From the UHGV virus genome UHGV-0039337: a stretch of DNA of 64,000 bases. The stretch is one strand, 5' to 3'. Numbering within the stretch: the first letter of the stretch is position 1; each line of letters starts with the position of its first letter. The stretch is from a virus. The translations under genes were made by a program, and so were the position numbers. The notes under the pieces were generated by a model. The model ran no database searches, had not been told where the DNA came from, and saw only the letters and a program-made list of their open reading frames with translations. Shown here piece by piece: positions 24,408 through 44,265 of this stretch.

Positions 24408-24416
24408 GTGATACTA

Positions 24417-24719: not shown

Positions 24720-24733
24720 TACCGTGTCTTTTT
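24708..24733 (+). terminator. rho-independent terminator
   Basis: GACACGGT / ACCGTGTC stem (8 bp) with loop CTAAT containing the stop codon, then TTTTT. Confidence 0.65.
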
Positions 24734-24769
24734 ATGTGTAATATTTTAATAGTGAAGGTGGTGAGTCAA

Positions 24770-26002
24770 ATGAATAGTGATGAATTAAAGCGTATGAATA
24801 AAGGATTCATGAGAAAAGATGGAAAATTCTTTTTACCTGTTACTCATGAATCTTTAGTAGTTGACAATAACGGTGCTAACATTAAAGAAAAATATATGTT
24901 AAAAACTGATCTAAGTAATTATGCTACTGAAGATTTTGTTAAAGATTATGTTCTTCGAGCACAGCTAGGAGGATCAGAAGCCGTAGATTTAAGTCAATTT
25001 GCTAAAGCAGATCATAATCATGATGATAGATATTTAAAACTTGATGATGCAAAAGAAGCATTTGACAATAAGGTAAATAAGGAAGAAGGAAAATCTTTAG
25101 TATCAGATGAAGATATAGCTAAATTAGCTACATTAAAAAATTATGATGATACTGAAATTAGAGGATTACTTACAGATAAAGCTCCAGCTAATCATAATCA
25201 TGATGATAGATATGCAGCTAAAAACTTTGAACATACTCATGAAAATAAAGCTGTATTAGATGAAATCACATTGGTTAGAATGAATACTTGGGATAGTAAA
25301 TCTGATTTTAGTGGTTCATATAGAGACCTAACAGATAAACCAGAGATACCTTCTATTGAAGGATTAGCTACTCAAGAATTTGTTGAAACAAGAATAAAAG
25401 AAGCTGCTAAACCTAACTTTAATTTTAAGGTAAATCTAATAGCTTCAAATCAAGAAGCATATGTTACTACTACTGGTGAATATCCTGATTTAATTATAAC
25501 ATTTAATATACCTCAAGGCACAGGTAGTGGTGGTACAGATACTCCTACAAAACCAGATACAGGTACTCCTAGAATGTGGATAGGGTATATATATTGGGAC
25601 GAAACAGGCACTGCTGGAGTAAATACTGTTGAAGCTATGGCTAATAAAATAACAAAATCAGATATTGATAAAGCTAAAATTAGAGGTGGCTTGAAAGAAA
25701 TGGATCCTCAAACTCTTGATGACTATTCATGTGGAAATACTGAAAAATCAGATGATGGAGTTTATGTATGTTGTATATATCCTGAATCTAGCAATTTTGA
25801 TATAATGATAATGACTAGTGAATTATCAGGTAAATTTGATCATTTTAGCAATATAAATAGTGAAGATGGAAGTACAGGATACACGCTATGTCAACAAGCT
25901 TTAAAAATAGACGGACAAATAGATGGCGTTACTTATTGCCAATCAGGTGCTTTTGTAGCAGCTGATGGTTCAAAATATCGTCTAAGAGTACGACAACTTT
26001 AG
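24770..26002 (+). CDS. tail fibre paralog with HNHDDRY repeat motifs
   Basis: ATG 24770 after GAAGGTGGTGA (track start 24734). Two HNHDDRY motifs and SGSYRDLTDKPEIPSIEGLATQEFV, a Gram-positive phage fibre repeat. Confidence 0.55.
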   Translation: MNSDELKRMNKGFMRKDGKFFLPVTHESLVVDNNGANIKEKYMLKTDLSNYATEDFVKDYVLRAQLGGSEAVDLSQFAKADHNHDDRYLKLDDAKEAFDNKVNKEEGKSLVSDEDIAKLATLKNYDDTEIRGLLTDKAPANHNHDDRYAAKNFEHTHENKAVLDEITLVRMNTWDSKSDFSGSYRDLTDKPEIPSIEGLATQEFVETRIKEAAKPNFNFKVNLIASNQEAYVTTTGEYPDLIITFNIPQGTGSGGTDTPTKPDTGTPRMWIGYIYWDETGTAGVNTVEAMANKITKSDIDKAKIRGGLKEMDPQTLDDYSCGNTEKSDDGVYVCCIYPESSNFDIMIMTSELSGKFDHFSNINSEDGSTGYTLCQQALKIDGQIDGVTYCQSGAFVAADGSKYRLRVRQL

Positions 26003-26016
26003 TAGGAGGTGATTAA

Positions 26017-27018
26017 ATGTCTACAGATTTTACTACAGATGTTGAAAAAATAACGGGTGCATTATTACCTAGCGCTGCTGATATTCCTCTTGATATAAGA
26101 ACTAGGGTAGAAACAGAAGCAGATATAATGAACATACCTAAACCTTATATAGGTATGATAGTATATGTTAAAGATACTGGAAAACGTTATGAAATATTAA
26201 CTTTAAAAAATAAAAAACAAGGACCTACTATTATAAAAAATGCTGCAGTTGATACATACAAAGAATTTGGTAGCGAATATGCAACTAAAATAGAGTTAGC
26301 TTCAACAGACTCTGAATTAGATACTGCACAAGAAAATATAACTACTTTGGAAGAAACATTGAGTAAATTGCTTCATCCTTATAAAGCACCAGAAGTATCT
26401 TTATCAGTAGTTAGAGCTCCTATAAGTTTAGTACTTGAAAAAGGCGAAACAGTTAACGTTGCTAAATTAGAAACTAAAATAGTTAAAAATTCTGAAAATA
26501 TAACTAAAGTAGTTTTTTATCAAAATGATATTGCGTTAAAAACTATAACAGAAAATGTAACTGCAGGAGGAACTTTCGAATATTCTTTTGAAAATGCTGT
26601 ACAGTTACAAGATGATATTACTAAAGAATATTTTAGAGTAGAAGTTACTGATGCTAGTAATAATATAATAGGTGTAAATGCACAAGATATTAATTTTGTT
26701 TATCCATATTATTTTGGTATAATAGATGAAAATGAATTAATAGATGGTAATATTATCAAGAGCTTTAATAAAGTTATAGAAGTTAAAAAAGATCAATCTT
26801 ATACATACACATCTAATAACCAACATATGGTTTTTGCTTTCCCAAAAGCATATAAAAGCTTATCAAAAATAGTAGATGCTAACGGATTTATATTAACAGC
26901 TACATTTGAAGTTGAAGAAATCGATGTAGAATGTTTAGATGGCACAACTCAAATTTACTATGTATATAAAAACGGAGCGTCTACAATCTCAAATTATAAT
27001 ATAACTTTTAAATTTTAA
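26017..27018 (+). CDS. tail fibre paralog / receptor-binding protein
   Basis: AGGAGGTGA SD. C-terminal ~110 aa (FVYPYYFGIIDENE..MVFAFPKAY..LDGTTQIYYVYKNGAST) is homologous to the C-terminus of the 27034 protein. Confidence 0.55.
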   Translation: MSTDFTTDVEKITGALLPSAADIPLDIRTRVETEADIMNIPKPYIGMIVYVKDTGKRYEILTLKNKKQGPTIIKNAAVDTYKEFGSEYATKIELASTDSELDTAQENITTLEETLSKLLHPYKAPEVSLSVVRAPISLVLEKGETVNVAKLETKIVKNSENITKVVFYQNDIALKTITENVTAGGTFEYSFENAVQLQDDITKEYFRVEVTDASNNIIGVNAQDINFVYPYYFGIIDENELIDGNIIKSFNKVIEVKKDQSYTYTSNNQHMVFAFPKAYKSLSKIVDANGFILTATFEVEEIDVECLDGTTQIYYVYKNGASTISNYNITFKF

Positions 27019-27033
27019 TAAAGGAGTGATAAC

Positions 27034-28836
27034 ATGGCAGATAATAACTTATTTTATGGTAAAGGTATTACCGTAGCTTCTGGTTTTGACCTTGGAGCAA
27101 AATCACCTTTAGACCATCGTTTAGTTGTACAAACTGCTGAAGAACGTGATGCTCATATTACAGGAAACAGAGCTTATCCTGGTATGTTAGTATACGTTAA
27201 AGATGAGGATAAAACATACAGATTTAATGGTACAGTTTTTGTTGAATTTGGTGTAACTGATTTATCTGAATATGCTAAGACTGCTGATGTTGAAAAGAAA
27301 ATAGCAGATGCTGTAACTAGCGGAACTATAGACTTAACAGCATACGCAAAAACTGCTGATATGAATAAAGCATTAGAAGGTAAAGTAGATAAAGTAGAAG
27401 GTAAGTCATTAATAGCTGATACTGAAATAACTAGATTAGCTGAAGTTAAAAATTATGACGATACTGAAGTTAAAGGACTTATAGATGGTAAAGCTGATAA
27501 GATTCATAAACATAGTTATAATGATTTAGACAATAAACCTGAAATACCAAGTATAGAAGGCTTAGCTTCTAAAACATATGTAGATGGCAAAGTATCAGAT
27601 TTAGTTAATGGTGCTCCAGAAGCAATGGACACTTTACAAGAATTAGCTAAAGCTATAACTGATCATCAAACTGTTTATGACGCTTATGTTCAAACTGTGT
27701 CTAATAACTTAGCTAAAAAAGTTGACATAGTAGAAGGTAAATCTTTAGTTGCTGATACTGAAATAGCTAAGATACATGAACATGCAAACAAAGAAGAATT
27801 AGATAAAATAGAAGTTGGAGACAAAGCTAAATGGGATTCTAAAGCAGATGGCGATCACAACCATGATGGTATATATTTAAAAGAAGTACCAGCTGAATAC
27901 ATAACTGAAGAAGAACTAGCTGCTGAAGGATTCTTGAAAGAACATCAAAGTTTAGTAGATTATGCTAAAACAGCTGATGTTGATACTAAATTAGCTGGAA
28001 AAGCTCCACTTGAACATACTCATAGCTATAACGATTTAGAAGATAAACCAGTAATACCTGATGTATCTGGATTTGCTACTAAAAAAGATGAAGATGCTAG
28101 AGAAAAATTTGTTACAGATGTATTAACAGTAAATACATTAGGTGGTATAACTGCTGGTGCGGATTTAAATGGACTAACAGTAAAAGAAATATTAAATAAA
28201 TTATTATATCCATATGTAAAACCTATTGTATCTGCAAAAGGTAATCCTAATGGTGGTATATTTGAAAAAGGTAAAAATCAAGTAATTACTAATGTACAAG
28301 TAAGTGTTACTAAAAAATCTGAAAAGATAACTAAAATAGAAGTATTTGATGGGGCTAATTCTCTAGGAGTACAAGAAGGAGATGCTGTAGCTGGTGGAGG
28401 TACTTACAACTTCACAGTTAATATTCCAGTAGAATCTGTTAATAAAACTTTAACAGCTAAAGTTACTGATGCATCTAATACAGTAACTAGTGCAAATACA
28501 GCTTCATTTACTTTTGTATATCCATATTATACAGGTATAGCTGCTGAAGATGCTGAAATAAACGAAGAGTTTGTAAAAGGATTAACTAAGAAAGTAGAAG
28601 TTAAAGGTAATAAGACTGTAGCTTATACATGTAATAATGAAAAAATGGTATTTGCTTATCCAAAAGCTTATGGTGTTATAAAACAAATATTTGACCCTAA
28701 TAATTTTGATGTTACAGGAACATTTACAAGAACTGAAGTTTCAATTACAGGATTAGATGGAACTGCTCAAGCATATTATGTTTATACTAATGGTGCTTCA
28801 ACAGTAGATAACTTTAATATGAGATTTAACTATTAG
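27034..28836 (+). CDS. tail fibre paralog / receptor-binding protein (600 aa)
   Basis: AAAGGAGTGA SD. N-terminal anchor domain shared with 28854. Repeats HKHSYNDLDNKPEIPSIEG and HTHSYNDLEDKPVIPD. C-terminal domain shared with 26017. Confidence 0.6.
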   Translation: MADNNLFYGKGITVASGFDLGAKSPLDHRLVVQTAEERDAHITGNRAYPGMLVYVKDEDKTYRFNGTVFVEFGVTDLSEYAKTADVEKKIADAVTSGTIDLTAYAKTADMNKALEGKVDKVEGKSLIADTEITRLAEVKNYDDTEVKGLIDGKADKIHKHSYNDLDNKPEIPSIEGLASKTYVDGKVSDLVNGAPEAMDTLQELAKAITDHQTVYDAYVQTVSNNLAKKVDIVEGKSLVADTEIAKIHEHANKEELDKIEVGDKAKWDSKADGDHNHDGIYLKEVPAEYITEEELAAEGFLKEHQSLVDYAKTADVDTKLAGKAPLEHTHSYNDLEDKPVIPDVSGFATKKDEDAREKFVTDVLTVNTLGGITAGADLNGLTVKEILNKLLYPYVKPIVSAKGNPNGGIFEKGKNQVITNVQVSVTKKSEKITKIEVFDGANSLGVQEGDAVAGGGTYNFTVNIPVESVNKTLTAKVTDASNTVTSANTASFTFVYPYYTGIAAEDAEINEEFVKGLTKKVEVKGNKTVAYTCNNEKMVFAYPKAYGVIKQIFDPNNFDVTGTFTRTEVSITGLDGTAQAYYVYTNGASTVDNFNMRFNY

Positions 28837-28853
28837 AAAATAGGTGATTAATA

Positions 28854-29516
28854 ATGGCAAGCGAACCTATATATGGTAAAGGTATTGTTGTAGCATCTGG
28901 TTTTGATTTAAGTGCCAAATCACCTTTAGATAGTCGTTCTATTGTTAATACTATTGAAGAACGTGACGCTCACGTAAAAGGTAATCGTGCTTATCCTGGT
29001 ATGACAGTGTTCGTTCTTGATGAGCAAAAAGAATATAGATATACTGGTACGCAATGGATTGAAATATTAAATGATTTAAATGCTGTACATACACATAATA
29101 ATAAAGATGTACTTGATAACATAACAGCATTAGATATATCTACTTGGAATGCTAAAAGTGATTTTAGTGGATCATATAATGATTTAACAGATAAGCCAAC
29201 AATACCTACAAAAGTTTCAGAGTTAACGAATGATTTATCGTTAGCATCTGAATCTTTTGTTACAAATAAAATAGCTGAGGCTAAATTAGAACAAAGCAAA
29301 ATAGATTTGAGTGGTTTTGCTACTAAAGACGATTTACTTGATTATGTAAGTAATAATGACTTAGCTGCCACACTTGTTGATTATGTAACAGTAAACGATC
29401 TAAAGGCTGAAGGATATACTACGCAAACGTATGTAGATAATAAAATAGCCACTCATGAACATGTTATATTGACTTCTACTGAAGCTGAAACTATGTTTAA
29501 TGATTTATATAAATAA
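28854..29516 (+). CDS. short tail fibre paralog (220 aa)
   Basis: N-terminus MASEPIYGKGIVVASGFDLSAKSPLDSRSIVNTIEERDAHVKGNRAYPGM is nearly identical in pattern to that of the 27034 gene. SGSYNDLTDKPTIP repeat. Confidence 0.55.
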   Translation: MASEPIYGKGIVVASGFDLSAKSPLDSRSIVNTIEERDAHVKGNRAYPGMTVFVLDEQKEYRYTGTQWIEILNDLNAVHTHNNKDVLDNITALDISTWNAKSDFSGSYNDLTDKPTIPTKVSELTNDLSLASESFVTNKIAEAKLEQSKIDLSGFATKDDLLDYVSNNDLAATLVDYVTVNDLKAEGYTTQTYVDNKIATHEHVILTSTEAETMFNDLYK

Positions 29517-31862: not shown

Positions 31863-31890
31863 GGCCTTCGGTTTGTACCGGAGGCTATAT
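31863..31890 (+). terminator. putative terminator (GC-rich hairpin with weak U-tract)
   Basis: GCCTTCGG / CCGGAGGC stem with one G-U pair, followed by TATATTATAT. Confidence 0.4.
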
Positions 31891-31907: not shown

Positions 31908-32135
31908 ATGAGTAATAAAAAAGTTACTGGAGACGCCTTAAATAGAATTCTCAAAGCTAATAAAGAATATATAGATAACAGAGATTTGGGATTTGAAGAA
32001 ATTGACGTAGATCCAAATACAGGTTATATAATATCTAAAACATCGTCTCAATCTTATGGTGGATTATATTCTAATGATGTAACAACTAATTTAAATAGAA
32101 CACATAAAACGTCTAATGATACAGATACAAAATAA
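31908..32135 (+). CDS. small hypothetical protein (75 aa)
   Basis: ATG 31908 after GAGGTGATAA (track GTG 31899). Confidence 0.35.
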   Translation: MSNKKVTGDALNRILKANKEYIDNRDLGFEEIDVDPNTGYIISKTSSQSYGGLYSNDVTTNLNRTHKTSNDTDTK

Positions 32136-32165
32136 TGGGTCAATAAATTATTGACCCATTTATTG
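32135..32165 (+). terminator. rho-independent terminator / perfect palindrome
   Basis: ATGGGTCAATAA-A-TTATTGACCCAT is a perfect 12-bp-arm palindrome followed by TTATTG. Confidence 0.6.
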
Positions 32166-32194: not shown

Positions 32195-32932
32195 ATGTTA
32201 CAAGGTATGAGAACAGGCTTTTTACTTTATCCAAATAGTGCAGATAGAATCTTGCCTATTACACATATTAATTTGGTATTGGATAATGATGGTAAATCTA
32301 TACAAAACAAATTTAATCATTGGAATGAAGTAATAGCTAATTTAGAGACTAGCATGAGCGATGGTAGAGTATTGAGCGTTGATACTCATGATCAATTATT
32401 GGCTTTAAAAATAGATAAATTAAAAAACGGTGCTATATGTTATGTAGGCGACGAAGACACATATTATAGTTTCACCTCTACTGGTGGTTGGAAAATACTT
32501 ACAACTGGAAGTACTGGTGAAGAAGATATATATTCTCATATTTGGGTAGGTCCAGATCCTCCAGAAGATGACACTATGTTTTGGTATGATACTAGTTCTG
32601 ATGGAATTGTAGATGAAGACGATGAAAAAGATTTAATGATTATAAATAATCTATTAAATAAAATGGTGGAAATGCAAAATACTATAATCTTATTAGAAAA
32701 AAGAGTTAAATACTTAGAGGATCACGGAGTAGTTAGTCCAGATAATCCACCAGTTGAAACTGAAAACAATATATTACTATTAGAAGATGGCTATACATTA
32801 TTACTAGAAGATGGCACAGAGCTTTTATTAGAAGTACAAAGTATACCTCAACCGGAAAATATAAAAACTTTATTATTTGAAGATGGTACTGAATTATTAT
32901 TAGAAAACGGTACTAATCTATTGTTAGAATAG
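32195..32932 (+). CDS. short fibre protein with C-terminal tandem peptide repeats
   Basis: GAAGGTGGTGA SD. ICYVGDEDTYYSF anchor-like motif and WVGPDPPEDDTMFWYD. C-terminus has five tandem copies of an 11-12-aa unit (LLLEDGYT / LLLEDGTE / LLFEDGTE / LLLENGTN / LLLE). Confidence 0.45.
   Translation: MLQGMRTGFLLYPNSADRILPITHINLVLDNDGKSIQNKFNHWNEVIANLETSMSDGRVLSVDTHDQLLALKIDKLKNGAICYVGDEDTYYSFTSTGGWKILTTGSTGEEDIYSHIWVGPDPPEDDTMFWYDTSSDGIVDEDDEKDLMIINNLLNKMVEMQNTIILLEKRVKYLEDHGVVSPDNPPVETENNILLLEDGYTLLLEDGTELLLEVQSIPQPENIKTLLFEDGTELLLENGTNLLLE
32771..32929 (+). repeat. tandem ~36-nt coding repeats (x4-5) at the 3' end of the 32195 gene
   Basis: Repeated ttattagaagatggNacNgaattattattagaa units visible in the nucleotide sequence. 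Confidence 0.6.
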
Positions 32933-32947: not shown

Positions 32948-35569
32948 ATGGCAGGCAAGAAAATAAGTGATTTAACTGAAGTACTTACAGTTGATACTGA
33001 AAATGATTACGTCGTTATAGCAAGAAGTGGCGACAATAAAAAATTAAAAGTAGCCAATATGATGGGTTCTACTAATGTTGGCGAAAATTACGTTGATTTA
33101 TTAGGAGAAGACGGTACTACAGAATATAGATTAATAATAGATCAAAATGGAAAGGCTCAAGTATTTCCTAAAGAATGCGTAACAGGACATAAATATGAAC
33201 CAGGAGACAATTTAAAAAAACCTTTAAAATCTGATAAAGTAGTAGTAGGAGCTGTAGGAGCAAAATCTGGAGACGGAGAAAAGAATGCTTCAGTAGTTGA
33301 TGTTCATGGTATAGTTATTAATCAAGCATTCGGTGGAGATGGATATTCTGCTACAGATATGAAACAAGGTACTGCATGTAGTCATAGTTTTGTTGAATTA
33401 TATAATTGTTCAAATAATCTAAATGTAAACTTATGTGGACTTTATTTACACTATAGAGGCTTCGGCTCTACAGGTACTTTAGATGCTACTTGGAAGACAT
33501 TGCCTTTAAGAGGGTTAGTGCCTCCTCGTACTTCATTTTTAATAAGAGGTAAACAACATGCGCCATTCTATAGTGATATGGTTAACTGTAAATTATATGA
33601 TTATGATCAAGAATGGATAGATGAAGCAACCAATGAACCATTAGCTTTTTCTAGTAAAGGATTCGCTTTTTATTTAAGTACTAATTCAGAACCTCCAACT
33701 ATCAATCCTGAAGCAGTTACTGTAATTAAAAATGATGCAGGTGTTGTTACTAGCACTACATATGATCAATACTATGTAGACTTATTAGGATGCGGAGGAG
33801 CTGGTGTAGATACTGCGCCACCTGCATATAATAAATTCTTTTGGAATTGTTTAAATAAAGATACAGGTGTTAGACGTATTAACTTTAGAAATAATAAAAA
33901 TAATAAATATGATACAGAACCTATAAATTATAGAACATGTGAAAAATTAGAAGATATCAAACCTAGAAGCTTACGTGATGGTTTATGGGAACAAATAGAA
34001 GATAAAATAAAGCCTAATCTTAATGCACCTAATTTAATAAATATAACTTTCGGTAAAGTTGCAACTACTAGATATTTTACTTGGCAATCAATAGTGACTA
34101 ATAGTGGATACATAAAATATAGAAAAATAAAAAATGAATCTAATGCAGTTGAAATAGGTGCATGGAAACAAGTAGAAAGTGAACGTGAAATAGTCAATAA
34201 TCATAATATTTTTATGACAATACATAGAGTTAAATTAACAGATTTAGAGCCAGGTTTATATGAATACAAATGCGGAGAAGAAGGATATTGGTCAGACATA
34301 GAACAAATGGAAATAAGAAAATATGATGATAATTCTACAATAAAAATATTATGGACTACAGATCAACAAGGTTATACAGAACAAGAATATAAAGCTTGGG
34401 ATAGTTGTGTTAAAGCGATAAGAGAACAAGATGGCGTGTATAATGATAAAGGATTACCTGTATTCGATTTTCATTTAAATACAGGAGATATATCACAAAA
34501 TGCAAGCAATTTATATGAATGGCTATATTATAGTAAATATGCAGGAGAATTCTGTAAAAACATACCTCATATGATAACTTGCGGTAATAATGATTTAGTT
34601 GAAAAGAACTATGGATTTGCATTTGAACATTATTCAACTTATGAAGATGTCCCTATGCTTAACAGTATAGCCGGTACTACTGTTTCTACTGTAGATTGTC
34701 CTATGGTATCAACTTATTCATTTGATATAGGAAATGTTCATTTTGTATCATTAAATTCAAATCAAGAATTAATGTATAATGATTATGGAATAAATGCTAC
34801 TATATTTTTAGACAAACAAGCTCGTTTTTTAGATAAAGATTTATGGGAAGTATGTCAAAGACAAACTAAACCTAAATGGATAATAGTGCTTGCTCATCTT
34901 TCTCCATTTACAGTTACTAGAGCTAAAAGATTACAGCATTGGATAGCTGTAGTAGAACATTATGAAATAGATTTATTTTTATGTGGTCATAATCATACTT
35001 ATTCAAGATCTATTCCAATTAAATGCGGATATGAAAAAACAAAATATGAAGATGCAATAAGTGAAAAAAATTATAATACATATGTAACTAAAGCTGCTAC
35101 ATATACTGAAGTAGCTGAAACTAAAAAAGATAACCAAACTGAAATAGACAGAACTGCTAATCCTACTCATGGTACTTATTATGTAATGTTCCAAGCGGGT
35201 GGTGCTAAACAAAGTGGTAAAGAAAAAGCTATAGATATAACACTGCCAGCATTTACTGGATTAGATTCTAAACATAAAAGTATTAACGCTCCTAATAGAC
35301 CATGGTGGTATGATTATAATGGAGCTTTACCTGTTCAACCATGTTATTCTACTATAGACATAACAAAAGATGCCATAACTATGAAAATGAATTATGTTAA
35401 AGATGTAGAATCAATAGCAAAAGATACTGGAATTATTTCAATAAGTAATTATAATTCAGCTAAAAATACAGTAGTTAATTTTGATAATTTAACTATTAAT
35501 CATGCTGATAGACAACCTGCTTATAGAACAGGTGGAGTTACTGCTCCTTATTATGATGAAAATAAATAA
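32948..35569 (+). CDS. virion-associated lamin-tail-domain (LTD) plus calcineurin-like metallophosphoesterase protein (873 aa)
   Basis: GGGAAGGAGA SD. SHSFVELYNCSNNLNVNLCGLYLHYRG..FLIRG matches the LTD signature (fvELyN....vdLsGw.L). Downstream are metallophosphatase motifs in canonical order: ILWTTDQQG, GDISQN, CGNND, and GHNHTYSR (the GHxH motif). Confidence 0.6.
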   Translation: MAGKKISDLTEVLTVDTENDYVVIARSGDNKKLKVANMMGSTNVGENYVDLLGEDGTTEYRLIIDQNGKAQVFPKECVTGHKYEPGDNLKKPLKSDKVVVGAVGAKSGDGEKNASVVDVHGIVINQAFGGDGYSATDMKQGTACSHSFVELYNCSNNLNVNLCGLYLHYRGFGSTGTLDATWKTLPLRGLVPPRTSFLIRGKQHAPFYSDMVNCKLYDYDQEWIDEATNEPLAFSSKGFAFYLSTNSEPPTINPEAVTVIKNDAGVVTSTTYDQYYVDLLGCGGAGVDTAPPAYNKFFWNCLNKDTGVRRINFRNNKNNKYDTEPINYRTCEKLEDIKPRSLRDGLWEQIEDKIKPNLNAPNLINITFGKVATTRYFTWQSIVTNSGYIKYRKIKNESNAVEIGAWKQVESEREIVNNHNIFMTIHRVKLTDLEPGLYEYKCGEEGYWSDIEQMEIRKYDDNSTIKILWTTDQQGYTEQEYKAWDSCVKAIREQDGVYNDKGLPVFDFHLNTGDISQNASNLYEWLYYSKYAGEFCKNIPHMITCGNNDLVEKNYGFAFEHYSTYEDVPMLNSIAGTTVSTVDCPMVSTYSFDIGNVHFVSLNSNQELMYNDYGINATIFLDKQARFLDKDLWEVCQRQTKPKWIIVLAHLSPFTVTRAKRLQHWIAVVEHYEIDLFLCGHNHTYSRSIPIKCGYEKTKYEDAISEKNYNTYVTKAATYTEVAETKKDNQTEIDRTANPTHGTYYVMFQAGGAKQSGKEKAIDITLPAFTGLDSKHKSINAPNRPWWYDYNGALPVQPCYSTIDITKDAITMKMNYVKDVESIAKDTGIISISNYNSAKNTVVNFDNLTINHADRQPAYRTGGVTAPYYDENK

Positions 35570-35590: not shown

Positions 35591-38500
35591 ATGCCAATTA
35601 AGAAAAAAATAAATGGTAGATGGGTCAATGTTACTGGTTCATCTACCAGTACTAATAATACTAAAGCAATCAATATTGGTATCACAGATTCATTAGGATT
35701 TTATGATACTGACAATGTGGAAGGCGCATTAGCAGAAATAGGTAATGATTTAAAAAATACTAATGCTAATATAGAAAAGGTAGCAGCAGAGCTCAAAGAC
35801 CATAAACAAAATCATCCAGGTGGAAGTGGCAGTAGTGGAGGAGCTACCTTACCTACAATAACTTCTGATTTTAAAACAACAACTTCAGATGGCAAATCGA
35901 ATATAGAAATTCCTATATTTTTTACTTCTCCTTCTTTAGGTGATGGTACTGCATATATTCTTGTTAAGAATGTAGAAATAGCTACACAACAAATACAACA
36001 AGGAAATAACACTATTATTGTGCCACCTATTGGAGCTGGTAAAAATATAAATATATCATTATATGTTAAAGATAGAGCAGGACTTATTTCTAATCAATTA
36101 ACGTGGTTAATTACTGCTGGCGGTATTGAGATGACAATAATTACTGATACAAAGGCAGATTACGATATAAATAACAGAATAGTTATATCTTATACTATAA
36201 GCTGTATTTCTAACGAAGATATATATGCTCACTTTGAAATAGATGGAAAAGATAATCAAGTTAAATCTATTAACGGATACAATAGCTATCAGTTAACTGG
36301 ATTAACTGTAGGTGTTCATAAGATTTCCTACTGGGCAGAATCTGGTGATTATAAAACCACTAGTAAATCTTTTAACTTAATAATTGTAAATGAAGATACA
36401 TTAATAGTATCTACTGAATTTGATTCAGATAAAGAATATGAAAGCGGTATACCTATTAGCATACCTTACAGAGTTTCTATAACTAAAGACGAAGACTTTA
36501 CTGTTAAAATGTATATAGACGGTAATTTAGATAAAACTATAGTTACTAGACCTACAAGTTTATATTGGTCTATAACTTCATTAGATATTGGCAATCATAC
36601 ATTGAAAATAGAAGCTATTAATGATTCGTTAAATCTTAGCAACTCTATAGAATTTGCATGTCATGTTATTGAAGGTGAATATACTAGAGTGCAGCCTGTA
36701 ATGGATGCTTCTTTACTGTGCTGGTTTGATGCCACAGACAAAACTAATAATGATAGCGATAGAGATGTATGGACAGATAAAATATTAGGTAATAAGGGTT
36801 ATTTACATAATTTTAACTATGGTTCTAACGGATGGATAACAAACGATTCTACTCATACTTCTGAACTAGTAATGGATGGTACATGTTATGTTGAAATAGA
36901 CATGACACCTTTTAAAGATAATTTTAAAAACGGTGGTACTATAGAATTGGTATTTAAAGTTAGAGATGTTGGAAATGTTGATGCAAGAGTTTTAGATATA
37001 ACAGATACAATTTCTCCTTATAAAGGCATTTATATAGACACACGTGATGCATATTTAGCAACTGAAGCAAGAACGACAACTGCCTCTATAGGTGAAGATG
37101 AGTATATACATGTTATGTATGAAATAGATAGAACTAATAAATATGCACATGTAATAGTAAATGGAGTAATTACTGGTTCATGTAAACTTAGTGATAGTGG
37201 TATAGGTACATCTGCTGTATTAGAATCTATAGCGCATACTCAAAAGATTTATCTTAATAGTCAAAAAGGCACAGATTTATTTGGTTCATGTGAAATTAAA
37301 CATTTTAGAATATATGATAGAGCATTAAGTTTTGATGAAATACTACAAAACTATTTATCTACTATTGAAGACATAAAAGTTCAAAAATCTAAAGTTGATT
37401 TTAATGATCCACTTAAGAATATAATGCCAATAATGAATATAACATGCGATCCTGAACTATTTTCTATAATGACAGATGTTAATCAAATAGAAGTTGCTAT
37501 GACTTATACATCTCCTAATGCAGATTTGTATGGACAAACATTGACAACAGCTACTAAGTGTTTAATGTATTGGCAAGGTACGTCTTCAAAAGGTTATAAT
37601 ATACATAACTATAATTTATATCTAAGAGATGACAATAGACAACCTATAGCTTATAGTCCATATCCTAATTGTATTCCTCAATCATTATTTTGCTTAAAAG
37701 CAAATTTAATGGAATCTACAAATGCTCATAACGTAGGTCTTGCAGGCTATGTTAGAAAATATTTATATACTCATAATAATCCGGCGCAAGATGCAGATCC
37801 ACGTGCATCTAGAGTTATTCAGGGATTTCCTTTCTTGTTATATATAAATGGTGAATTAGCTGGCGTATATGATTTTAATTTAGATAGATATTCGTACACA
37901 GCATTTGGCTATGATTTACCAGCTCATAAAAATAAATGCAAAGTATATGAAATATCTGCCAATACAAACAAAACTGCAGGAGCATTTATACCATGGAGTG
38001 CAGATACAGGAGTAGATGAATGGACATGGTATAAAAATGACTTTGGTGGTATATATCCAGAATCTATACAAAACTCTGTTAATGATGATTTTACTGAATT
38101 GAAAAACTTAATTAAGTTTGTACATGATTCAAATGATGAAAAATTTGTTACTGATTTTGAAACATATTTTGATAAAGAATCAGTTATCAGATATTACTTA
38201 TTTGTAATGGTTTTAGGCCTTGTTGACTCATTAGGTAAGAATGCTAAACTTGTTACTTATGATGGTGTCAAATGGTATTTTGAGTTTTATGATATGGATA
38301 CAGCCATGGGTCTAGATAATACTGGTGCAGTTAAATTTGATGTTGATATAGAAATGAGTATGGGCAAATTCAATACTGCAGAATCTACACTATGGGTAAG
38401 ATTAGATAGATTATTTCATGACGATATAGTTAATGAATATAACATGATGAGAAATCAAAACTTAACAGCTGAAAAAATATATGAGTGTATATTCACTGAC

Positions 38501-41500
38501 CAAATAGATAAAATACCTGAAAGTCAATATAATCTTAGTACTCAAAAGAAATATCTTGACACAGGTGAATATATTATGATGTCTAATGGTAACAGATATT
38601 ATGGACTTAAACGTTGGATAAAAGACAGAATTTTATATTGCGATACTTTATTTAATTACACGCCTTCTATTTCAGATTTTATTACAATACGTTCAGGTAT
38701 AACTGGAGAAGCTTATATTGATATCGAAACTTATTCTCCTATGTATTTGACTGTTAGATGGCGTAATGTAATTGACGGAACAGCTGACCAAAAACTTAAG
38801 ATAGGAAGAAATCAAAAAGTTAGATTCCAAGCTGAAGGTTTAAATATACCTTCAAACAAAGACCAAGAAATTATAATTTATGGAGCTAAACATATAAAAA
38901 GCTTTGGTCAATTAGACGGATTAATTCCTATGTATTTATATTTAAATAACGCTACAAAATTAACTAATGTAGAATGCCCGAATGATTCAGAATTATTAGT
39001 TGCTGAAATAGCTAATTGTAGTTATCTACAAAAGGTAGATTTTAGTGGCTGTAGTAGTTTAGGTACATTAGAAAAATATCAAGTTCTCGATGTTAGCGGA
39101 TGTAATAACTTAAGATATTTAAATGCATATGGTACGGTGTTAACGTCTATCAGCACTAATCAATCTGGTGGAAACTTAGTTGAAATGTATGTGCCTAAGA
39201 CATTACAAACATTATCATTGCAAAATCAATATAGTTTAAAAGTTATTGGTATACCTGGTGCGAGTACTTTAGAAAGCACTAAGCTATATGATTTAAAACA
39301 AAACGCTAGTAATATATCAAGCTTTACTCTTATCAATTGTCCTTTAGTTGAAAGATTAACTTATGCTTCAGATTTTACAGTAAACAGTAATTTCTTTGAT
39401 AATTTTACAAATGAACGTAGATCAGCAGAACTTAATTATTTAACTTATACTAAAAATGAGTGGAAACGTTTAATGTATTGGGGAAATGGTTTAGCTAACT
39501 GTTATAATATCAACATAGAAAACAGTTGTCATAATATACCTAGTATGAGCTTTAGAGGTATAAGTAATTTACAGAGTTTGAAACTTAGAGCAATGCCTGG
39601 ATTAAAAACTCTAATGCTTGGAGCTAACTGTTGTGGATACAGATATAATAATGATCCTACTTATGAATCTAATAAATATGATACAGTTGGAGAATTTGAT
39701 TGGGATACATTAAGTATAATAGATTGTCCTAATATAGAAGAATTTAGAATACATGAAATGTATCCATATAATTGGAATGAAGGTTCTAGTGGTAACTTAA
39801 CATATTTTACCTTTAAACCTGGAACAGAATCTATTAACTTAGCTGCTAAATTTCCTAACTTAAAAATATTTGAGTGTAATTGTGCTACACAAAATATACA
39901 TCAAATAATACTTCCTCAATCATTAAAAACTATTATGACTTGTGCATGGAATAATAGACATGATGAGGGTTTTCCTAATGAAGTTAAGATAGAACAATTT
40001 AATATAGATAGTATCTATTTTGAAGGAGAGCATGAAGAAAGCTATACTGGTATAGATTTAGGAAACCACGCGTTACAAAATGTATGTATAATTGCTCCTT
40101 ATGCTTCAGAGTTAATAGGAGTTAATATCACAAATACACATGTAAATCCTATATTTAATGATTTAAAAGAAGCAGATAATGAAAATAGACCATTTGTTAC
40201 TCCTAACGGTAGGATAGATGTATCTAAATTTAAATGGAAAAATATATCTGACTGGTTTGCGTATATAGATTTTACTAAGGGAAAATGTGAAGTTATAACT
40301 CCAACTAACTGGAAAACATTCTTGGTAGGTATACAAAAGGCTAGTAGAATGTTTTATCATTGTACAAATCCTGATTTTACTTGGGAATTTGCTATGGAAT
40401 TCTTTTCTAAGATAAATACCTATTCTGATTTAAGTTATATGTATCAATATGCACAATTAGCAGATCAAGCTGATTTTGATACTGCTGCTGTAGTAATGGA
40501 AAACAAATATAATATAGGCGGATATAACTATAATATAAAACCTTTTCTAGGAACTAATCTTAAATTCGTTAAATCATTTACTTTAACAGCATGTGATGGT
40601 GCATATGCTACATTTAGTGGATGCAGCAGTTTAATTAAAGTAGGAGATTGTAAATTTACAGGATCTAGATCTAGTACATGGGGAATAAGTTATTTATTTA
40701 ATAACTGTATTGCATTAGAAGAAGTAGGAAATATAACTTCTTATGCTAATAAAAATAGTAGTTCTACTATACCAATGGATAATACATTTGAAGGTTGTAA
40801 TAAGTTAAAGAAAATAGGCACATTAGATATATCAGTTAGCAGTATGAACTGTGCTTACTATGATTGTTCTGTATTGGAAGACAATGGATTAAGTTTACCT
40901 TATATGGGAAATTGTGTAGATGTAAGAAATGCATTCTTTGGATGTTATACTTTAACTGCTATTAATTTTGAAACACTTGAAAAGGTTATATATGCTGATG
41001 CATTCTTGCGTAATTGCTATGGATTGTTATCAATACATTTACCAAGCATCAATCGTGATCATCCATTACAAGAATTCTCTAGTGCATTTTCTGGATGTAC
41101 TGCATTAAAGACTATAACTATAGAAGGAGACACATTACCTATAGGATTAAGAAATATGAGCTATGCTTATTCTAATTGTCCATCATTAACTAACGTAATA
41201 CCAGTTCCTTCAGATTTTGTAAATGATGTAGACATGAGTGGATGTTGTAGTCGTTGTAGTTCATTAACAGATGATGCTATATATAAAGAAATACCATTTA
41301 GAGTTGTTAATACCAATTATATGTATGAACGTTGCAATAGTTTAATTTCTCCAACAGTTAATTTATTATGTGACAATGTAACTTCAAAACAAATGTTTAG
41401 ATATTGTGAAAATATGACTAGTTTAACAGTCAATTATAATGGACGTTTATTGCGTGATACTACTTTCTTTGCAGAATATTGCAACAGATTACAAACCGTT

Positions 41501-42040
41501 AATTTTAAATTCCCTAGCGCACTTGTAATGCATGAATACTATGGAACTGGAGTTACTTATTATAATATGTTCCAATATTGTGGTAGTTTATCTATAGTAA
41601 ATCTTAACATGTCTAAATTAGCAGATACTAATTCTAAAGCAGATTTTGGTAGCATGTTCTATGAAGATAAATATATTACAGAAATTCATGGATTAGATTT
41701 TGCTTATCTTAAAAAACCTATACGTAATTTTACTTCTAGTGGTCAAAGTCCTTACGATTGGCATGACACTTCTATTACATATGGTGGTACATATGAAAAC
41801 TTAACAACTTTAGATGTTACAGGTAAATTAACAACAAGCTATAACTTTAAAAATATTGCTACCATGGTTCATACTAAAGTTATTTTACGACACTTAGATA
41901 AAGTAACAAATGAAACATTAGGATTGACATATAATATAGTTGATGCCATAGATGATGAAAAAACAGAATCAGTAGATCAAGAATTAAAAGAATTAGCTAA
42001 TACAGCATTAAGCAATGGTTGGTCATTCATTATAGTATAA
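35591..42040 (+). CDS. giant multi-domain fibre/adhesin (2149 aa): Ig-like repeats, LamG/ConA-like jelly roll, CotH kinase-like domain, C-terminal BspA-type leucine-rich repeats
   Basis: TTAGGAGTTGA SD. LamG-like region about nt 36700-37350. CotH-like region about nt 37590-38650 (FLLYINGELAGVYDFNLDRYSYTAFG and WYFEFYDMDTAMGLDNTG fit the CotH pattern vNGey.GlY.l.E and D.D.tfG). From about nt 40540 to 41700 there are repeated units such as FEGCNKLKKIGTLDIS, AFFGCYTLTAINFETLEKVIYADAFLRNCYGLLSIHLP and FSSAFSGCTALKTITIEG, characteristic of BspA/TpLRR-type leucine-rich repeats. Confidence 0.6.
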   Translation: MPIKKKINGRWVNVTGSSTSTNNTKAINIGITDSLGFYDTDNVEGALAEIGNDLKNTNANIEKVAAELKDHKQNHPGGSGSSGGATLPTITSDFKTTTSDGKSNIEIPIFFTSPSLGDGTAYILVKNVEIATQQIQQGNNTIIVPPIGAGKNINISLYVKDRAGLISNQLTWLITAGGIEMTIITDTKADYDINNRIVISYTISCISNEDIYAHFEIDGKDNQVKSINGYNSYQLTGLTVGVHKISYWAESGDYKTTSKSFNLIIVNEDTLIVSTEFDSDKEYESGIPISIPYRVSITKDEDFTVKMYIDGNLDKTIVTRPTSLYWSITSLDIGNHTLKIEAINDSLNLSNSIEFACHVIEGEYTRVQPVMDASLLCWFDATDKTNNDSDRDVWTDKILGNKGYLHNFNYGSNGWITNDSTHTSELVMDGTCYVEIDMTPFKDNFKNGGTIELVFKVRDVGNVDARVLDITDTISPYKGIYIDTRDAYLATEARTTTASIGEDEYIHVMYEIDRTNKYAHVIVNGVITGSCKLSDSGIGTSAVLESIAHTQKIYLNSQKGTDLFGSCEIKHFRIYDRALSFDEILQNYLSTIEDIKVQKSKVDFNDPLKNIMPIMNITCDPELFSIMTDVNQIEVAMTYTSPNADLYGQTLTTATKCLMYWQGTSSKGYNIHNYNLYLRDDNRQPIAYSPYPNCIPQSLFCLKANLMESTNAHNVGLAGYVRKYLYTHNNPAQDADPRASRVIQGFPFLLYINGELAGVYDFNLDRYSYTAFGYDLPAHKNKCKVYEISANTNKTAGAFIPWSADTGVDEWTWYKNDFGGIYPESIQNSVNDDFTELKNLIKFVHDSNDEKFVTDFETYFDKESVIRYYLFVMVLGLVDSLGKNAKLVTYDGVKWYFEFYDMDTAMGLDNTGAVKFDVDIEMSMGKFNTAESTLWVRLDRLFHDDIVNEYNMMRNQNLTAEKIYECIFTDQIDKIPESQYNLSTQKKYLDTGEYIMMSNGNRYYGLKRWIKDRILYCDTLFNYTPSISDFITIRSGITGEAYIDIETYSPMYLTVRWRNVIDGTADQKLKIGRNQKVRFQAEGLNIPSNKDQEIIIYGAKHIKSFGQLDGLIPMYLYLNNATKLTNVECPNDSELLVAEIANCSYLQKVDFSGCSSLGTLEKYQVLDVSGCNNLRYLNAYGTVLTSISTNQSGGNLVEMYVPKTLQTLSLQNQYSLKVIGIPGASTLESTKLYDLKQNASNISSFTLINCPLVERLTYASDFTVNSNFFDNFTNERRSAELNYLTYTKNEWKRLMYWGNGLANCYNINIENSCHNIPSMSFRGISNLQSLKLRAMPGLKTLMLGANCCGYRYNNDPTYESNKYDTVGEFDWDTLSIIDCPNIEEFRIHEMYPYNWNEGSSGNLTYFTFKPGTESINLAAKFPNLKIFECNCATQNIHQIILPQSLKTIMTCAWNNRHDEGFPNEVKIEQFNIDSIYFEGEHEESYTGIDLGNHALQNVCIIAPYASELIGVNITNTHVNPIFNDLKEADNENRPFVTPNGRIDVSKFKWKNISDWFAYIDFTKGKCEVITPTNWKTFLVGIQKASRMFYHCTNPDFTWEFAMEFFSKINTYSDLSYMYQYAQLADQADFDTAAVVMENKYNIGGYNYNIKPFLGTNLKFVKSFTLTACDGAYATFSGCSSLIKVGDCKFTGSRSSTWGISYLFNNCIALEEVGNITSYANKNSSSTIPMDNTFEGCNKLKKIGTLDISVSSMNCAYYDCSVLEDNGLSLPYMGNCVDVRNAFFGCYTLTAINFETLEKVIYADAFLRNCYGLLSIHLPSINRDHPLQEFSSAFSGCTALKTITIEGDTLPIGLRNMSYAYSNCPSLTNVIPVPSDFVNDVDMSGCCSRCSSLTDDAIYKEIPFRVVNTNYMYERCNSLISPTVNLLCDNVTSKQMFRYCENMTSLTVNYNGRLLRDTTFFAEYCNRLQTVNFKFPSALVMHEYYGTGVTYYNMFQYCGSLSIVNLNMSKLADTNSKADFGSMFYEDKYITEIHGLDFAYLKKPIRNFTSSGQSPYDWHDTSITYGGTYENLTTLDVTGKLTTSYNFKNIATMVHTKVILRHLDKVTNETLGLTYNIVDAIDDEKTESVDQELKELANTALSNGWSFIIV

Positions 42041-42051
42041 GGAGTGATTAT

Positions 42052-42324
42052 ATGAGAGTATATAAAAACAGTTTAGGTATAACATGTATAGAACCAGCTG
42101 ATGGATATTTGCTAAGTAAGAACGGACAAACTTTTAAAAAAGCATGCTTAGGTAAAAATGATAGAGCTGAGTTATATACAGAAATAAAAAATGAAGATGT
42201 TGGACATGAAATTCAAAATACTACCTTTGATGTATCTGATAACATGATATTAATAAGTCCAAACGGAAAACGATTTAAATTAGTCGTCAATAACGATGGC
42301 TCATTAAGTACTAAAGAGATATAG
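42052..42324 (+). CDS. small hypothetical protein (90 aa)
   Basis: ATG 42052 after AAGGAGTGA (track start 42019 lies inside the previous gene). Confidence 0.4.
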   Translation: MRVYKNSLGITCIEPADGYLLSKNGQTFKKACLGKNDRAELYTEIKNEDVGHEIQNTTFDVSDNMILISPNGKRFKLVVNNDGSLSTKEI

Positions 42325-42330
42325 TATACA

Positions 42331-42355
42331 GGGCCGGATTAATTCCGGTCCTTTT
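42331..42355 (+). terminator. rho-independent terminator
   Basis: GGGCCGGA / TCCGGTCC stem (one G-U pair), loop TTAAT, then TTTT. Confidence 0.65.
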
Positions 42356-42545: not shown

Positions 42546-42572
42546 AGAGCCGTTTTATTCGGCTCTTTTTTA
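42546..42572 (+). terminator. rho-independent terminator
   Basis: AGAGCCG / CGGCTCT stem with 7-nt loop, then TTTTTT. Confidence 0.65.
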
Positions 42573-42798: not shown

Positions 42799-44265
42799 AT
42801 GGCTAATACTAAATTAATAAATTGCGATCAACTTCAAATTTCATTACAGAAAGTTAAAGATTATGTAGATGGTAAGTTTGCAGTAGCTGATCATAATCAC
42901 AATAATGTTTATTATACGCAAACACAAATAAACAATAAAATAAATAATATTAATTCTGCAATAGGCGGTAAAGCTAATGCAACACATTCACATAAATCAA
43001 GTGATGTTACAACCATGGGAGGATATTCTAAACCAGATTCTACTGGTGCTATAGCTACTACTGATACTTTAAATGCTGCAATTGGTAAATTAGAAACAGC
43101 ATTAGATGGTAAATCTAGCTCTAGTCATAATCATAATGGGGTTTATTTACCTATAAATGGTACAGCAGCTAGCGCTACTAAATTAGCTACAGCTAGAACT
43201 ATAAATGGTATAGAATTTGACGGTACTAAAGCTATAACTATAACAGCTAACCCTAATGCTCATAATCAGGCTTCAAATACAATAAATGCAATGACAGGAT
43301 ATGCTATAGCTAAAGCTTCTGCAGCAATAGCTACTACAGATAGTTTAAATACTGCTATAGGAAAACTAGAATATGCAATAGGACAAAAACAAGCTAGTGG
43401 TTCTTATGCTTCAGCCAATCATAATCATGATAACAGATATTATACAGAAACAGAAATAAATACTAAAATATCTGATTTACAAACTGCTGATACAAATAAT
43501 TTAGCTAATGCTAAAGCATATACTGATGCTGCTATTGATAAAATAACCGGAGAAGGCGTATCGGAAGCTCTTGATACATTAAAAGAATTAGGAGATGCAT
43601 TAAATAACGATGCTAATTTTGCAAGTACTATGACTACTGCATTAGCTGGTAAAGCAGATTCAAACCATATCCATGATGTTGCTACAACTACTACTGATGG
43701 ATTTATGTCATCTGATATGGTAACTAAATTAAATGGCATAGCTAATAATGCTAACAATTATGTGCATCCAACTACTGTTGGTAATAAACATATTCCTGCT
43801 GGTGGAGCTACAGGACAATTTTTAGGTTATTCAGCTGCTGGCACTGCTCAATGGGTAGCTAATCCTAATACAGATAGCAAAGTAAATACTGCAGCAGATA
43901 CAACTAGTACTAAATTATATTTAACTGGTGCTACTGGAGCTACTACTGCTGGATTGAAATATAGTTCATCTATTTTCTTTAGTGCTAAAGATGGTACCAT
44001 AACTGCTTCAGGGTTTAATGGCAAAGCTACTAGTGCCGGTTCTGCCGATACTGCTTCTGCTTGTTCTGGTAATGCAGCATCTGCTAGTAAAGTAAATAGT
44101 TCATTAACTATACAATTTAATGGTGTTAATAATAAAACATTTAATGGTAGTTCAGCACAAACAGTTAATATAACTCCTGCTTCAATAGGAGCTGCTACAA
44201 CTGCCGATACTGCTAAAGCAACAGACAAAGAAGTAAGCGATATGCTAACTACTATTTTTGGATAA
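42799..44265 (+). CDS. tail fibre protein with Phage_fiber_2-type repeats (488 aa)
   Basis: AAAGGAGTGCTAAA SD. KLATARTINGIEFDGTKAITITA matches the tail-fibre repeat known from coliphage fibres (laTaRtinGvsFDGsaNit). Spaced HNHN / HSH / HNHNG / HNHD motifs. GEGVSEALDTLKELGDALNNDANFAS motif shared with the 47228 and 27034 genes. Confidence 0.6.
   Translation: MANTKLINCDQLQISLQKVKDYVDGKFAVADHNHNNVYYTQTQINNKINNINSAIGGKANATHSHKSSDVTTMGGYSKPDSTGAIATTDTLNAAIGKLETALDGKSSSSHNHNGVYLPINGTAASATKLATARTINGIEFDGTKAITITANPNAHNQASNTINAMTGYAIAKASAAIATTDSLNTAIGKLEYAIGQKQASGSYASANHNHDNRYYTETEINTKISDLQTADTNNLANAKAYTDAAIDKITGEGVSEALDTLKELGDALNNDANFASTMTTALAGKADSNHIHDVATTTTDGFMSSDMVTKLNGIANNANNYVHPTTVGNKHIPAGGATGQFLGYSAAGTAQWVANPNTDSKVNTAADTTSTKLYLTGATGATTAGLKYSSSIFFSAKDGTITASGFNGKATSAGSADTASACSGNAASASKVNSSLTIQFNGVNNKTFNGSSAQTVNITPASIGAATTADTAKATDKEVSDMLTTIFG

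Follow-up and report, generated by a model that had tools for sequence, protein, structure and literature searches.

Why should a gut phage carry a phosphoesterase among its tail fibre genes, and on what would such an enzyme act? The question is raised by a 64,000-nucleotide stretch of the virus genome UHGV-0039337 (hereafter the window, meaning the whole of the DNA that was analyzed), in which an 873-amino-acid (aa) open reading frame (ORF) combines a lamin-tail domain (LTD) with a calcineurin-like metallophosphoesterase (MPE) that resembles the purple acid phosphatases (PAPs) in fold. A preliminary description of the gene had proposed a tail-borne phosphodiesterase of a new type that depolymerizes wall teichoic acid, lipoteichoic acid or similar phosphate-linked polymers of the host surface. 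Here, we show that the gene belongs to a phage family that retains all metal ligands, that differs from cellular relatives at the position of the usual general acid, and whose members are followed directly, in every related phage covered, by a gene for a giant protein with a CotH kinase-like core. The pairing with the CotH giant was missed by the preliminary description, and any functional model must account for it.

The gene begins with an ATG preceded by a strong Shine-Dalgarno (SD) site, AAGGAGAG. Its coordinates and the motif strings quoted previously were all confirmed in the 873-aa product, with SHSFVELYN...NLCGLYL at aa 145-167, GDISQN at aa 513-518, CGNND at aa 545-549 and GHNHTYSR at aa 680-687. 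A Pfam scan of the protein returned Pur_ac_phosph_N (PF16656; E 9e-9, 36.2 bits, cut-off 30) and Metallophos (PF00149; aa 466-685, E 1.2e-7, 32.8 bits, cut-off 21.5), both of them well beyond chance, and PF00149 is matched by all 26 aligned homologs. These were the only profiles matched at E<=1, with no match to the PhoD or PhoD_N profiles, and searches of PHROGs and NCBIfam assigned the protein to no family. The LTD profile, PF00932, likewise finds no match in the target itself at this threshold. Nevertheless, the LTD reading is right, because 19 of the 26 homologs match PF00932 (best E 3e-8) and the signature residues H146, F148, E150, N153, L162 and G164 are invariant in the homolog alignment. 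The combination of an LTD with a calcineurin-like MPE is therefore borne out, by direct profile matches for the enzymatic half and by way of homologs and fold for the LTD.

The full-length model of the protein (mean predicted local distance difference test score, pLDDT, 80.5) comprises a small beta-rich N-terminal part (aa 1-117), the LTD sandwich (aa 118-345), the Fn3-like PAP N-domain and the catalytic domain. When this model was searched with Foldseek, the top match was the lupin diphosphonucleotide phosphatase/phosphodiesterase PPD1 (E 1e-20), followed by the PAPs of sweet potato, kidney bean and wheat and then by Bacillus subtilis PhoD (E 1.6e-12); Plasmodium GAP50 is also among the fold matches. 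Conservation among close homologs peaks in the first 45 residues (81% mean pairwise identity), with the catalytic core next at 73%. These 45 residues share alignment columns with the Mtd_N-type segment of distant homologs, consistent with a putative virion-attachment module. On inspection, the N-terminus of the target is without a hydrophobic signal peptide.

The protein had been credited with the full ordered set of metallophosphatase motifs, and loss of metal-ligand residues in an alignment had been named as the observation that would speak against it. No ligand is lost: D472, D514, N547, H650, H681 and H683 are all present and are invariant in a homolog alignment that reaches down to about 32% identity. 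Alignment to the wheat and kidney-bean PAPs equates GNND of the target with GNHE, GHNH with GHVH and GDISQ with GDLSY, the last of these anchored in the wheat PAP alignment by the adjacent RWDxW/EWxYY block, and motifs III-V of the target align with PAP metal ligands. The motif set is complete in its ligands, but it is not canonical at two other positions. The histidine of GNH[DE], which serves as the general acid in most MPEs (lambda phosphatase His76, for example), is replaced in the phage family by an invariant asparagine, Asn548. The tyrosine of GDxxY, one of the seven invariant PAP ligands and the residue that gives the Fe(III)-tyrosinate chromophore, is replaced by Gln517, which is invariant or near-invariant among the homologs. 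All 96 of the 96 retrieved homologs having the domain carry GNND, including phage G gp352 and crAss002 gp19, whereas GNHE is retained by the SLH-anchored surface proteins of Oscillibacter and Dethiobacter, the closest cellular relatives. The signature specific to the family is DQQG / GDxSQN / GNND / H / GHxH. The target is thus a member of the MPE superfamily with a PAP-like fold and not a bona fide purple acid phosphatase.

How widely is this family distributed? Searching phage genomes with tblastn, we found a homolog in phage G of Bacillus/Lysinibacillus (gp352; 29% identity over 97% of the protein, E 5e-79), a set of crAss-like phage genes annotated as "phosphatase" (IAS virus gp084, crAss002 gp19, cr7_1, cr52_1 and others; about 25% identity over 72-80%), and further homologs in the ∼170-180-kb DAC/SJC phages of Bacteroides thetaiotaomicron, such as DAC22_88. 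An indexed search added 104 metagenomic relatives, and an exhaustive scan of 1.84 billion cluster representatives gave 78 matches at E<=1e-30, 344 at E<=1e-10 and 1041 at E<=1e-3. Close relatives lie on contigs of up to 279 kb and therefore derive from jumbo phages. When 24 kb of the window was compared with phage genomes by megablast, nothing matched, indicating that the window has no close sequenced phage relative. In many of the metagenomic relatives the LTD-MPE cassette is grafted onto N-terminal extensions that vary between 200 and 1,100 aa, and some homologs bear tail-type N-terminal anchors, namely Mtd_N in phage G gp352 and BppU_N/Mtd_N in P0077-P0095. Such variable extensions follow the modular pattern that fibres and spikes typically show. 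For the catalytic half, the closest sequence relatives of cellular origin are SLH-anchored PAP-like enzymes on the cell surface of Clostridia (25-27% identity).

Immediately downstream of the phosphoesterase gene, the window encodes a 2149-aa giant that matches CotH (PF08757; E 3e-14, 53.5 bits, cut-off 23.8), Laminin_G_3 and LRR_5, the last denoting leucine-rich repeats (LRRs), as well as phrog_9915 (E 1.5e-116). In a systematic tblastn search, a homolog of this giant lies directly after the phosphoesterase in 16 of 16 loci, the count covering loci that hold a full-length family member plus any downstream sequence, and the partner being a ∼2,000-2,650-aa LamG/CotH-kinase/LRR giant or its split pieces. 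The same search found no giant partner at ten loci with cellular relatives of the phosphoesterase domain alone. In phage G, the gene after gp352 is gp353, whose product shares the Pfam domains of the window giant and aligns with it colinearly over 1,283 aa (E 7e-148). In crAss002, gp20 ("transferase/internalin") follows gp19 and aligns with the window giant through the CotH core, and very distant jumbo-phage contigs also carry the pair. For two further phages, pairing was judged by gene size (DAC22, in which a 1177-aa homolog is followed by a 2657-aa gene) or by annotation (IAS virus, in which the "phosphatase" is followed by two internalin-like genes and a "transferase"). On this gene order, the phosphoesterase and the CotH giant appear to form an obligate two-gene module, and the two proteins probably work together at the host surface.

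Within the CotH core, D879-x3-K883-N884 and Y900-D901-x-D903 are invariant in all six aligned sequences. Going by the family consensus, these resemble the CotH catalytic loop and the metal-binding DxD; a solved CotH was sought with the core of the giant as a single sequence and as a six-sequence profile, and none was reached. CotH domains in phages have been called "currently unstudied" (PMC8008677).

Interruptions of both genes in related phages coincide with their active sites. In L031 and L032 (L031:9001-13628 and L032:9001-13213) the phosphoesterase gene is split after G513 and G546, and in L031 also after G680. The splits fall inside the catalytic motifs GD (II), GNND (III) and GHNH (V), equivalent to positions 34484, 34583 and 34985 of the window, where the gene is uninterrupted. 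Rfam group I introns occupy the first two L031 junctions (10499-10819 and 10965-11236; 69.5 and 106.3 bits), and the larger insertions in the gene carry ORFs with CapR and treble-clef zinc-finger domains that resemble homing endonucleases. The CotH giant is interrupted directly after FYDMD (D903) in three related phages (L006:15341-16934, L031:16339-17562 and L032:15930-17150; equivalent to about 38299 in the window, giant aa 903/904) by an insertion that carries a 302-305-aa ORF, and it is interrupted again in related phages near aa 1058. Rfam detected no intron at the gathering threshold in the FYDMD insertion. Homing of self-splicing introns is typically directed at those sites of important genes that are under the strongest constraint. 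Because group I introns homed there, motifs II and III are likely the most constrained DNA of the phosphoesterase gene, and the targeting of both active sites by insertions is indirect support for the view that both matter. Two other explanations of split or shortened genes were set aside. Homologs of ∼500 aa (∼505 aa; P0046-48) might be taken for natural enzyme-less versions, but they are exon-1 products of intron-split genes, and the split partner in L006 (907 aa + 305 aa + 1242 aa) more likely reflects an insertion at the YDMD motif than gene fission.

Table. Coordinates in the window of the phosphoesterase gene, its parts and the neighboring features of the same unit.
Feature	Position	Strand	Basis
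Terminator-like hairpins upstream of the unit	32134-32160 (another at 31863-31886)	+	
245-aa ORF, probable adaptor/anchor partner	32195-32932	+	Fused to the N-terminus of longer phosphoesterase homologs
Target ORF, 873 aa, LTD / PAP-like MPE	32948-35569	+	ATG start
N-terminal conserved segment, aa 1-45 (KKISDLTE..DYVVI..NKKLKV), putative virion-attachment module	32948-33082	+	Conservation
LTD, aa 118-345, Ig-like beta-sandwich with extra strands	33299-33982	+	PF00932 matches of homologs, fold
PAP N-terminal (Fn3-like) domain, aa 361-453	34028-34306	+	Pfam PF16656
PAP-like binuclear MPE domain, aa 466-873	34343-35566	+	PF00149, PDB sequence matches to plant PAPs, Foldseek
Motif I TTDQQG (D472 ligand; Q474 invariant)	34355-34372	+	Homolog alignment
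Motif II GDISQN (D514 bridging ligand; Q517 at PAP tyrosine position)	34484-34501	+	Homolog and PAP alignment
Motif III GNND (N547 ligand; N548 replaces canonical histidine)	34583-34594	+	Homolog alignment
Motif IV AHLSP (H650 ligand)	34892-34906	+	Homolog and PAP alignment
Motif V GHNH (H681 and H683 ligands)	34985-34996	+	Homolog and PAP alignment
2149-aa giant: fibre-like N-terminal region, LamG lectin-like, CotH kinase-like, BspA-type LRRs	35591-42040	+	Pfam, PHROGs
Laminin_G_3 (concanavalin-like lectin) domain, giant aa 472-584	37004-37342	+	Pfam; also in phage G gp353
CotH kinase-like core, giant Pfam aa 750-967	37838-38491	+	Pfam, alignments
BspA-type LRRs, giant aa 1714-1819, one of two LRR_5 stretches	40730-41047	+	Pfam
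Small ORF after the giant, 101 aa as listed, likely start M12 at 42052	42019-42324	+	Conserved only in close relative L006
Terminator-like hairpins just after the unit	42330-42352 (another at 42546-42566)	+	

The explanation that we prefer, with a probability of roughly 40%, is that the two proteins are paired enzymes of a virion appendage whose targets are phosphate linkages in the host envelope. The phosphoesterase would be a modular appendage protein of a gut phage of roughly 280 kb, with a low-GC member of the Bacillota as the probable host. Its conserved N-terminal segment, probably together with the adaptor-like protein encoded upstream, would attach it to the tail or baseplate, and N-terminal anchors would fix both it and the giant to the tail, while the LTD beta-sandwich and the Fn3-like domain would position the PAP-like binuclear enzyme. 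During adsorption the lectin (LamG), LRR and LTD parts may bind the host envelope, after which the metallo-enzyme would hydrolyze a linkage, either a phosphate ester or a phosphoanhydride, within a surface polymer or a lipid-linked glycan, so that the receptor is exposed or processed. A linkage with a good leaving group is favored because the general-acid histidine is missing. Extracellular chemistry is supported by the nearest cellular relatives being SLH-anchored surface PAP-like enzymes, and the structural neighbors of the predicted model, PPD1 and PhoD, lend further support as both are phosphodiesterases. The fibre-locus placement claimed for the gene also holds in the window, where tape-measure-like, baseplate and fibre genes flank it, and homologs bear the Mtd_N and BppU_N anchors.

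Several points weigh against this explanation. Because asparagine replaces the GNH histidine and glutamine replaces the PAP tyrosine, turnover could be weak or absent, and the catalytic competence of the target is not to be taken for granted. Among close homologs, no segment is as hypervariable as a receptor-binding tip should be. The genes around the pair in phage G and L003 are non-structural, thioredoxin reductase, GGDEF, NrdD and DnaB among them. Finally, literature searches found no proteomic or structural data for phage G gp352/gp353 or crAss002 gp19/gp20 that place the family in virions, nor any experimental data on these proteins or on tail-borne PAP-like enzymes.

Given the strict linkage of the two genes in crAss-like phages, Bacteroides phages, gut jumbo phages and phage G, one could suppose that both act on a single phosphoprotein, the CotH protein phosphorylating a Ser/Thr-rich substrate and the PAP-like enzyme removing the phosphates, a write/erase system and not a depolymerase. 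The substrate might be a virion or fibre component during assembly, or an envelope or coat protein of the host. PAPs are classically phosphomonoesterases, which would suit a protein-phosphatase role, and the two CotH motifs are invariant in six of six sequences, with the insertion targeting the YDMD site. Moreover, CotH of B. subtilis polyphosphorylates the serine-rich coat proteins CotB and CotG, for which D228 and D251 are required (PMC7821199). However, the mapping of the phage motifs onto D228 and D251 derives from the family consensus and the profile search reached no solved CotH, the supply of extracellular ATP is doubtful, no candidate Ser-rich substrate was identified, and keeping a kinase next to an opposing phosphatase would squander energy if nothing separated them in time or space. 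We regard this proposal as rather unlikely. More ambitiously, the pair might be a virion-borne phosphoryl write/erase machine that edits phosphates on envelope polymers or proteins of the host at adsorption, an ancient module of crAss-like, Bacteroides and gut jumbo phages and of megaphage G; this we consider quite improbable, but if true, it would be a receptor-modifying apparatus of a kind not described for any virus. The altered active site also invites the idea that the PAP-like domain lacks efficient catalysis and serves as a metal-dependent, phosphate-recognizing receptor-binding module that grips phosphorylated envelope polymers. Both replacements are family-wide in phages but GNHE persists in cellular relatives, Plasmodium GAP50 is a case of the PAP fold in structural use, and the partner looks like an adhesin (LamG, LRR). 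Pseudo-enzymes usually lose their ligands, however, whereas neither the six metal ligands nor the two replacement residues vary here across a deep divergence, and intron homing into the motifs argues that these are essential. Furthermore, active MPEs with other residues at the histidine position exist, with GNCD in YfcE and MJ0936 and GNRD in LpxH. A domain used purely for binding is unlikely in our view.

The same degree of doubt applies to the suggestion that the pair is not part of the virion at all. Expressed late, it would instead act within the infected cell or once lysis has occurred, either breaking down extracellular DNA or RNA, polyphosphate, nucleotides or second messengers, or remodeling the envelope of that cell against superinfection. 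The location of the pair among metabolic and replication genes in phage G and L003, close to a GGDEF cyclase, fits such a role, as does the top fold match, PPD1, being a nucleotide pyrophosphatase/phosphodiesterase. Bacterial LTDs are, in addition, typically fused to nucleases and phosphoesterases of the extracellular ExeM/NucH type. ExeM/NucH-type proteins are listed as cell-surface proteins (PMC12021427). Yet the target is without an export signal peptide, its homologs bear tail-type anchors and fibre-like, variable N-terminal extensions, and the gene lies inside a fibre block here and inside the structural block in crAss002 and IAS virus. As for the teichoic acid depolymerase first put forward for this gene, the host of the phage is probably, on weak evidence, an SD-using, low-GC member of the Bacillota: SD sites precede at least 13 of 31 window ORFs against a 9.6% background, the GC content of the window is 26-34%, and close relatives were binned with metagenome-assembled genomes (MAGs) of Clostridium, Bacilli and Mollicutes, MAG binning of phage contigs being weak host evidence. 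B. subtilis PhoD, a structural neighbor of the target, is a teichoic-acid phosphodiesterase (endo-hydrolase), and the fibre ORF at 58180-58713 shares a non-catalytic segment with a PHROG annotated as a glycerophosphodiesterase tail protein. Nevertheless, no finding identifies teichoic acid or any other substrate. The identical active-site signature is present in phages of Bacteroides, which is not known to have teichoic acids, and hence teichoic acid cannot be the general substrate. The missing general-acid histidine disfavors cleavage of alkyl phosphodiesters, and the target has no match to the PhoD Pfam family. With asparagine at the GNH histidine in all members of the phage family, one cannot assume that poor leaving groups are released by a robust diesterase activity. 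For this phage, the teichoic acid version is quite unlikely.

Returning to the virion-appendage pair, the surroundings of the two genes in the window fit tail proteins. All window ORFs of at least 100 aa that look real are on the + strand, and the whole window reads as a co-oriented tail module. Fibre-like PHROG matches at 27034-28836, 42799-44265, 44321-46939, 47192-47767 and 50985-52934 flank the phosphoesterase/giant pair on both sides, and a PHROG match marks a baseplate wedge-like gene at 10011-10823. The phosphoesterase gene likewise lies within the structural block in crAss002 and IAS virus, but not in phage G or L003, where its neighbors are non-structural. Terminator-like hairpins bracket the ORFs between 32195 and 42324, with no convincing terminator between the upstream and the downstream hairpins, and these ORFs therefore look like one transcription unit. 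The window contains no tRNA and no other Rfam family at the gathering threshold.

The 245-aa ORF at the start of this unit matches, by BLASTP, aa 69-195 of the phosphoesterase homolog P0076 (E 8e-8) as well as P0081 and P0083 (about 3e-4), and it shares short segments with the fibre-like ORFs at 24408-24719 (a 37-aa segment) and 24734-26002. A counterpart is kept upstream of the homolog in L006 (46% identity). From these matches, it is probably an adaptor or anchor partner of the phosphoesterase. That this ORF and the small one behind the giant might belong to the module as conserved members was considered too and rejected, as both are kept only in the close relative L006 and not in phage G, crAss002, L003 or L004. 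In the last of these, a distant 227-kb phage contig, the pair is followed by four consecutive small genes with tail Collar domains (PF07484; L004:16321-18615).

Other genes of the window, all on the + strand, deserve brief mention. At 141-8561, a 2806-aa tape-measure-like giant contains a non-specific DNA/RNA endonuclease domain (Endonuclea_NS_2; aa 733-878, E 1.4e-21) and, over aa 1779-2327, a long match (E 4e-159) to an endolysin-labelled PHROG; a fusion with an ejected nuclease or lysin is a possibility. The stretch 24408-29516 holds paralogous fibre-like genes (24734-26002, 26017-27018, 27034-28836 and 28854-29516) that share shuffled segments with 34-53% identity. A serine recombinase (Resolvase N-domain; phrog_95, phrog_125) is encoded at 49512-50906 between fibre-like genes. 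It was considered as the recombinase of a Gin/Cin-type invertible fibre segment, but the search for inverted repeats gave none that convinced, and the genes all share one orientation. Fibre segments are duplicated beside it, between 50985 and 58026 (54-59% identity): aa 236-394 of the ORF at 50985-52934, which also has collagen repeats, match aa 833-996 of the ORF at 53692-58026, and aa 122-255 of the ORF at 52915-53685 match aa 755-889 of the same protein. Finally, the 177-aa fibre-like ORF at 58180-58713 matches the C-terminal part of tail-fibre PHROGs and that of phrog_2204 ("glycerophosphoryl diester phosphodiesterase"; positions 648-749 of the 764-position profile). This is a shared non-catalytic fibre module and not an enzyme domain.

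Tail-borne enzymes decide which bacteria a phage can reach, and those characterized are mostly glycosidases, lyases and esterases together with a few phosphodiesterases of the glycerophosphodiesterase (GDPD) fold. To these, the family described here would add a binuclear MPE whose active site is unusual and which is consistently paired with a CotH kinase-like adhesin. Among the carriers of the module are crAss-like phages, which rank with the most abundant human gut viruses and whose receptor-binding machinery awaits identification (PMC8042965). The cultivable phage G and DAC phages carry it as well, and its function is therefore open to laboratory testing.

How does this pair compare with known systems? 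The concept of a tail-borne phosphodiesterase is already known, as is the "phosphatase" annotation in crAss-like phages. The gene is therefore not of a new type in the sense of being unseen, since homologs are already annotated as "phosphatase" or "metallophosphoesterase" and a review of the Crassvirales lists phosphatase domains among tail-spike annotations (PMC10136315). New are the family signature (Tyr to Gln and GNH to GNN), the strict coupling to the CotH giant across crAss-like, Bacteroides and gut jumbo phages and phage G, and the intron and insertion targeting of both active sites. True homologs are phage G gp352/353, the crAss-like phosphatase/giant pairs and DAC22_88/89, the names of which are annotation only. 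They share with the target the LTD + (PAP_N) + Metallophos order, the signature DQQG / GDxxQN / GNND / GHxH and the downstream giant partner. Their N-terminal anchors differ, with Mtd_N in gp352, extensions of 300-700 aa in the crAss and DAC proteins, and a separate upstream ORF in the window.

More distant comparisons concern single parts of the system. The plant PAPs (lupin PPD1, 3zk4; kidney bean, 1kbp) share the Fn3-like N-domain and the MPE fold with the target (Foldseek E 1e-20 to 1e-17) and align with it in motifs III-V, but at only 12-14% identity, with Gln517 and Asn548 of the target in place of the tyrosine and the GNHE histidine, and the target adds an LTD and a fibre-type N-terminus. 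B. subtilis PhoD (2yeq), which acts extracellularly on phosphodiester polymers including teichoic acid, has the PAP-like two-domain fold in common with the target at fold level only (10% identity); unlike the target, it has a Fe/Ca metal site and Tat export, and it is without an LTD or a CotH partner. The SLH-anchored PAP-like proteins (Oscillibacter, L023:7869-9692; Dethiobacter, L021:4974-9200), the nearest cellular relatives of the catalytic half, are extracellular, but have the canonical GNHE, no LTD in the same arrangement and no downstream CotH giant. Among phages of Gram-positive bacteria, baseplate glycerophosphodiesterases such as that of Lactobacillus phage Ld17 have been biochemically tested. 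They embody the same concept, a virion-borne phosphodiesterase acting on a phosphate-linked envelope polymer, with a TIM-barrel GDPD in place of the binuclear MPE sandwich and without a CotH partner. The association of LTD, Fn3-like and CotH modules also has a cellular precedent, because the cellulosome of C. thermocellum includes an extracellular LTD-LTD-Fn3-CotH fusion, Cthe_0239, and also CseP (PMC6083626). As in the phage pair, these proteins and CotH of B. subtilis place such modules in an extracellular or coat context. In Cthe_0239 and CseP, however, the modules are in one polypeptide with no phosphoesterase, whereas the phages carry the LTD and Fn3-like domains on the phosphoesterase and CotH on the neighboring gene.

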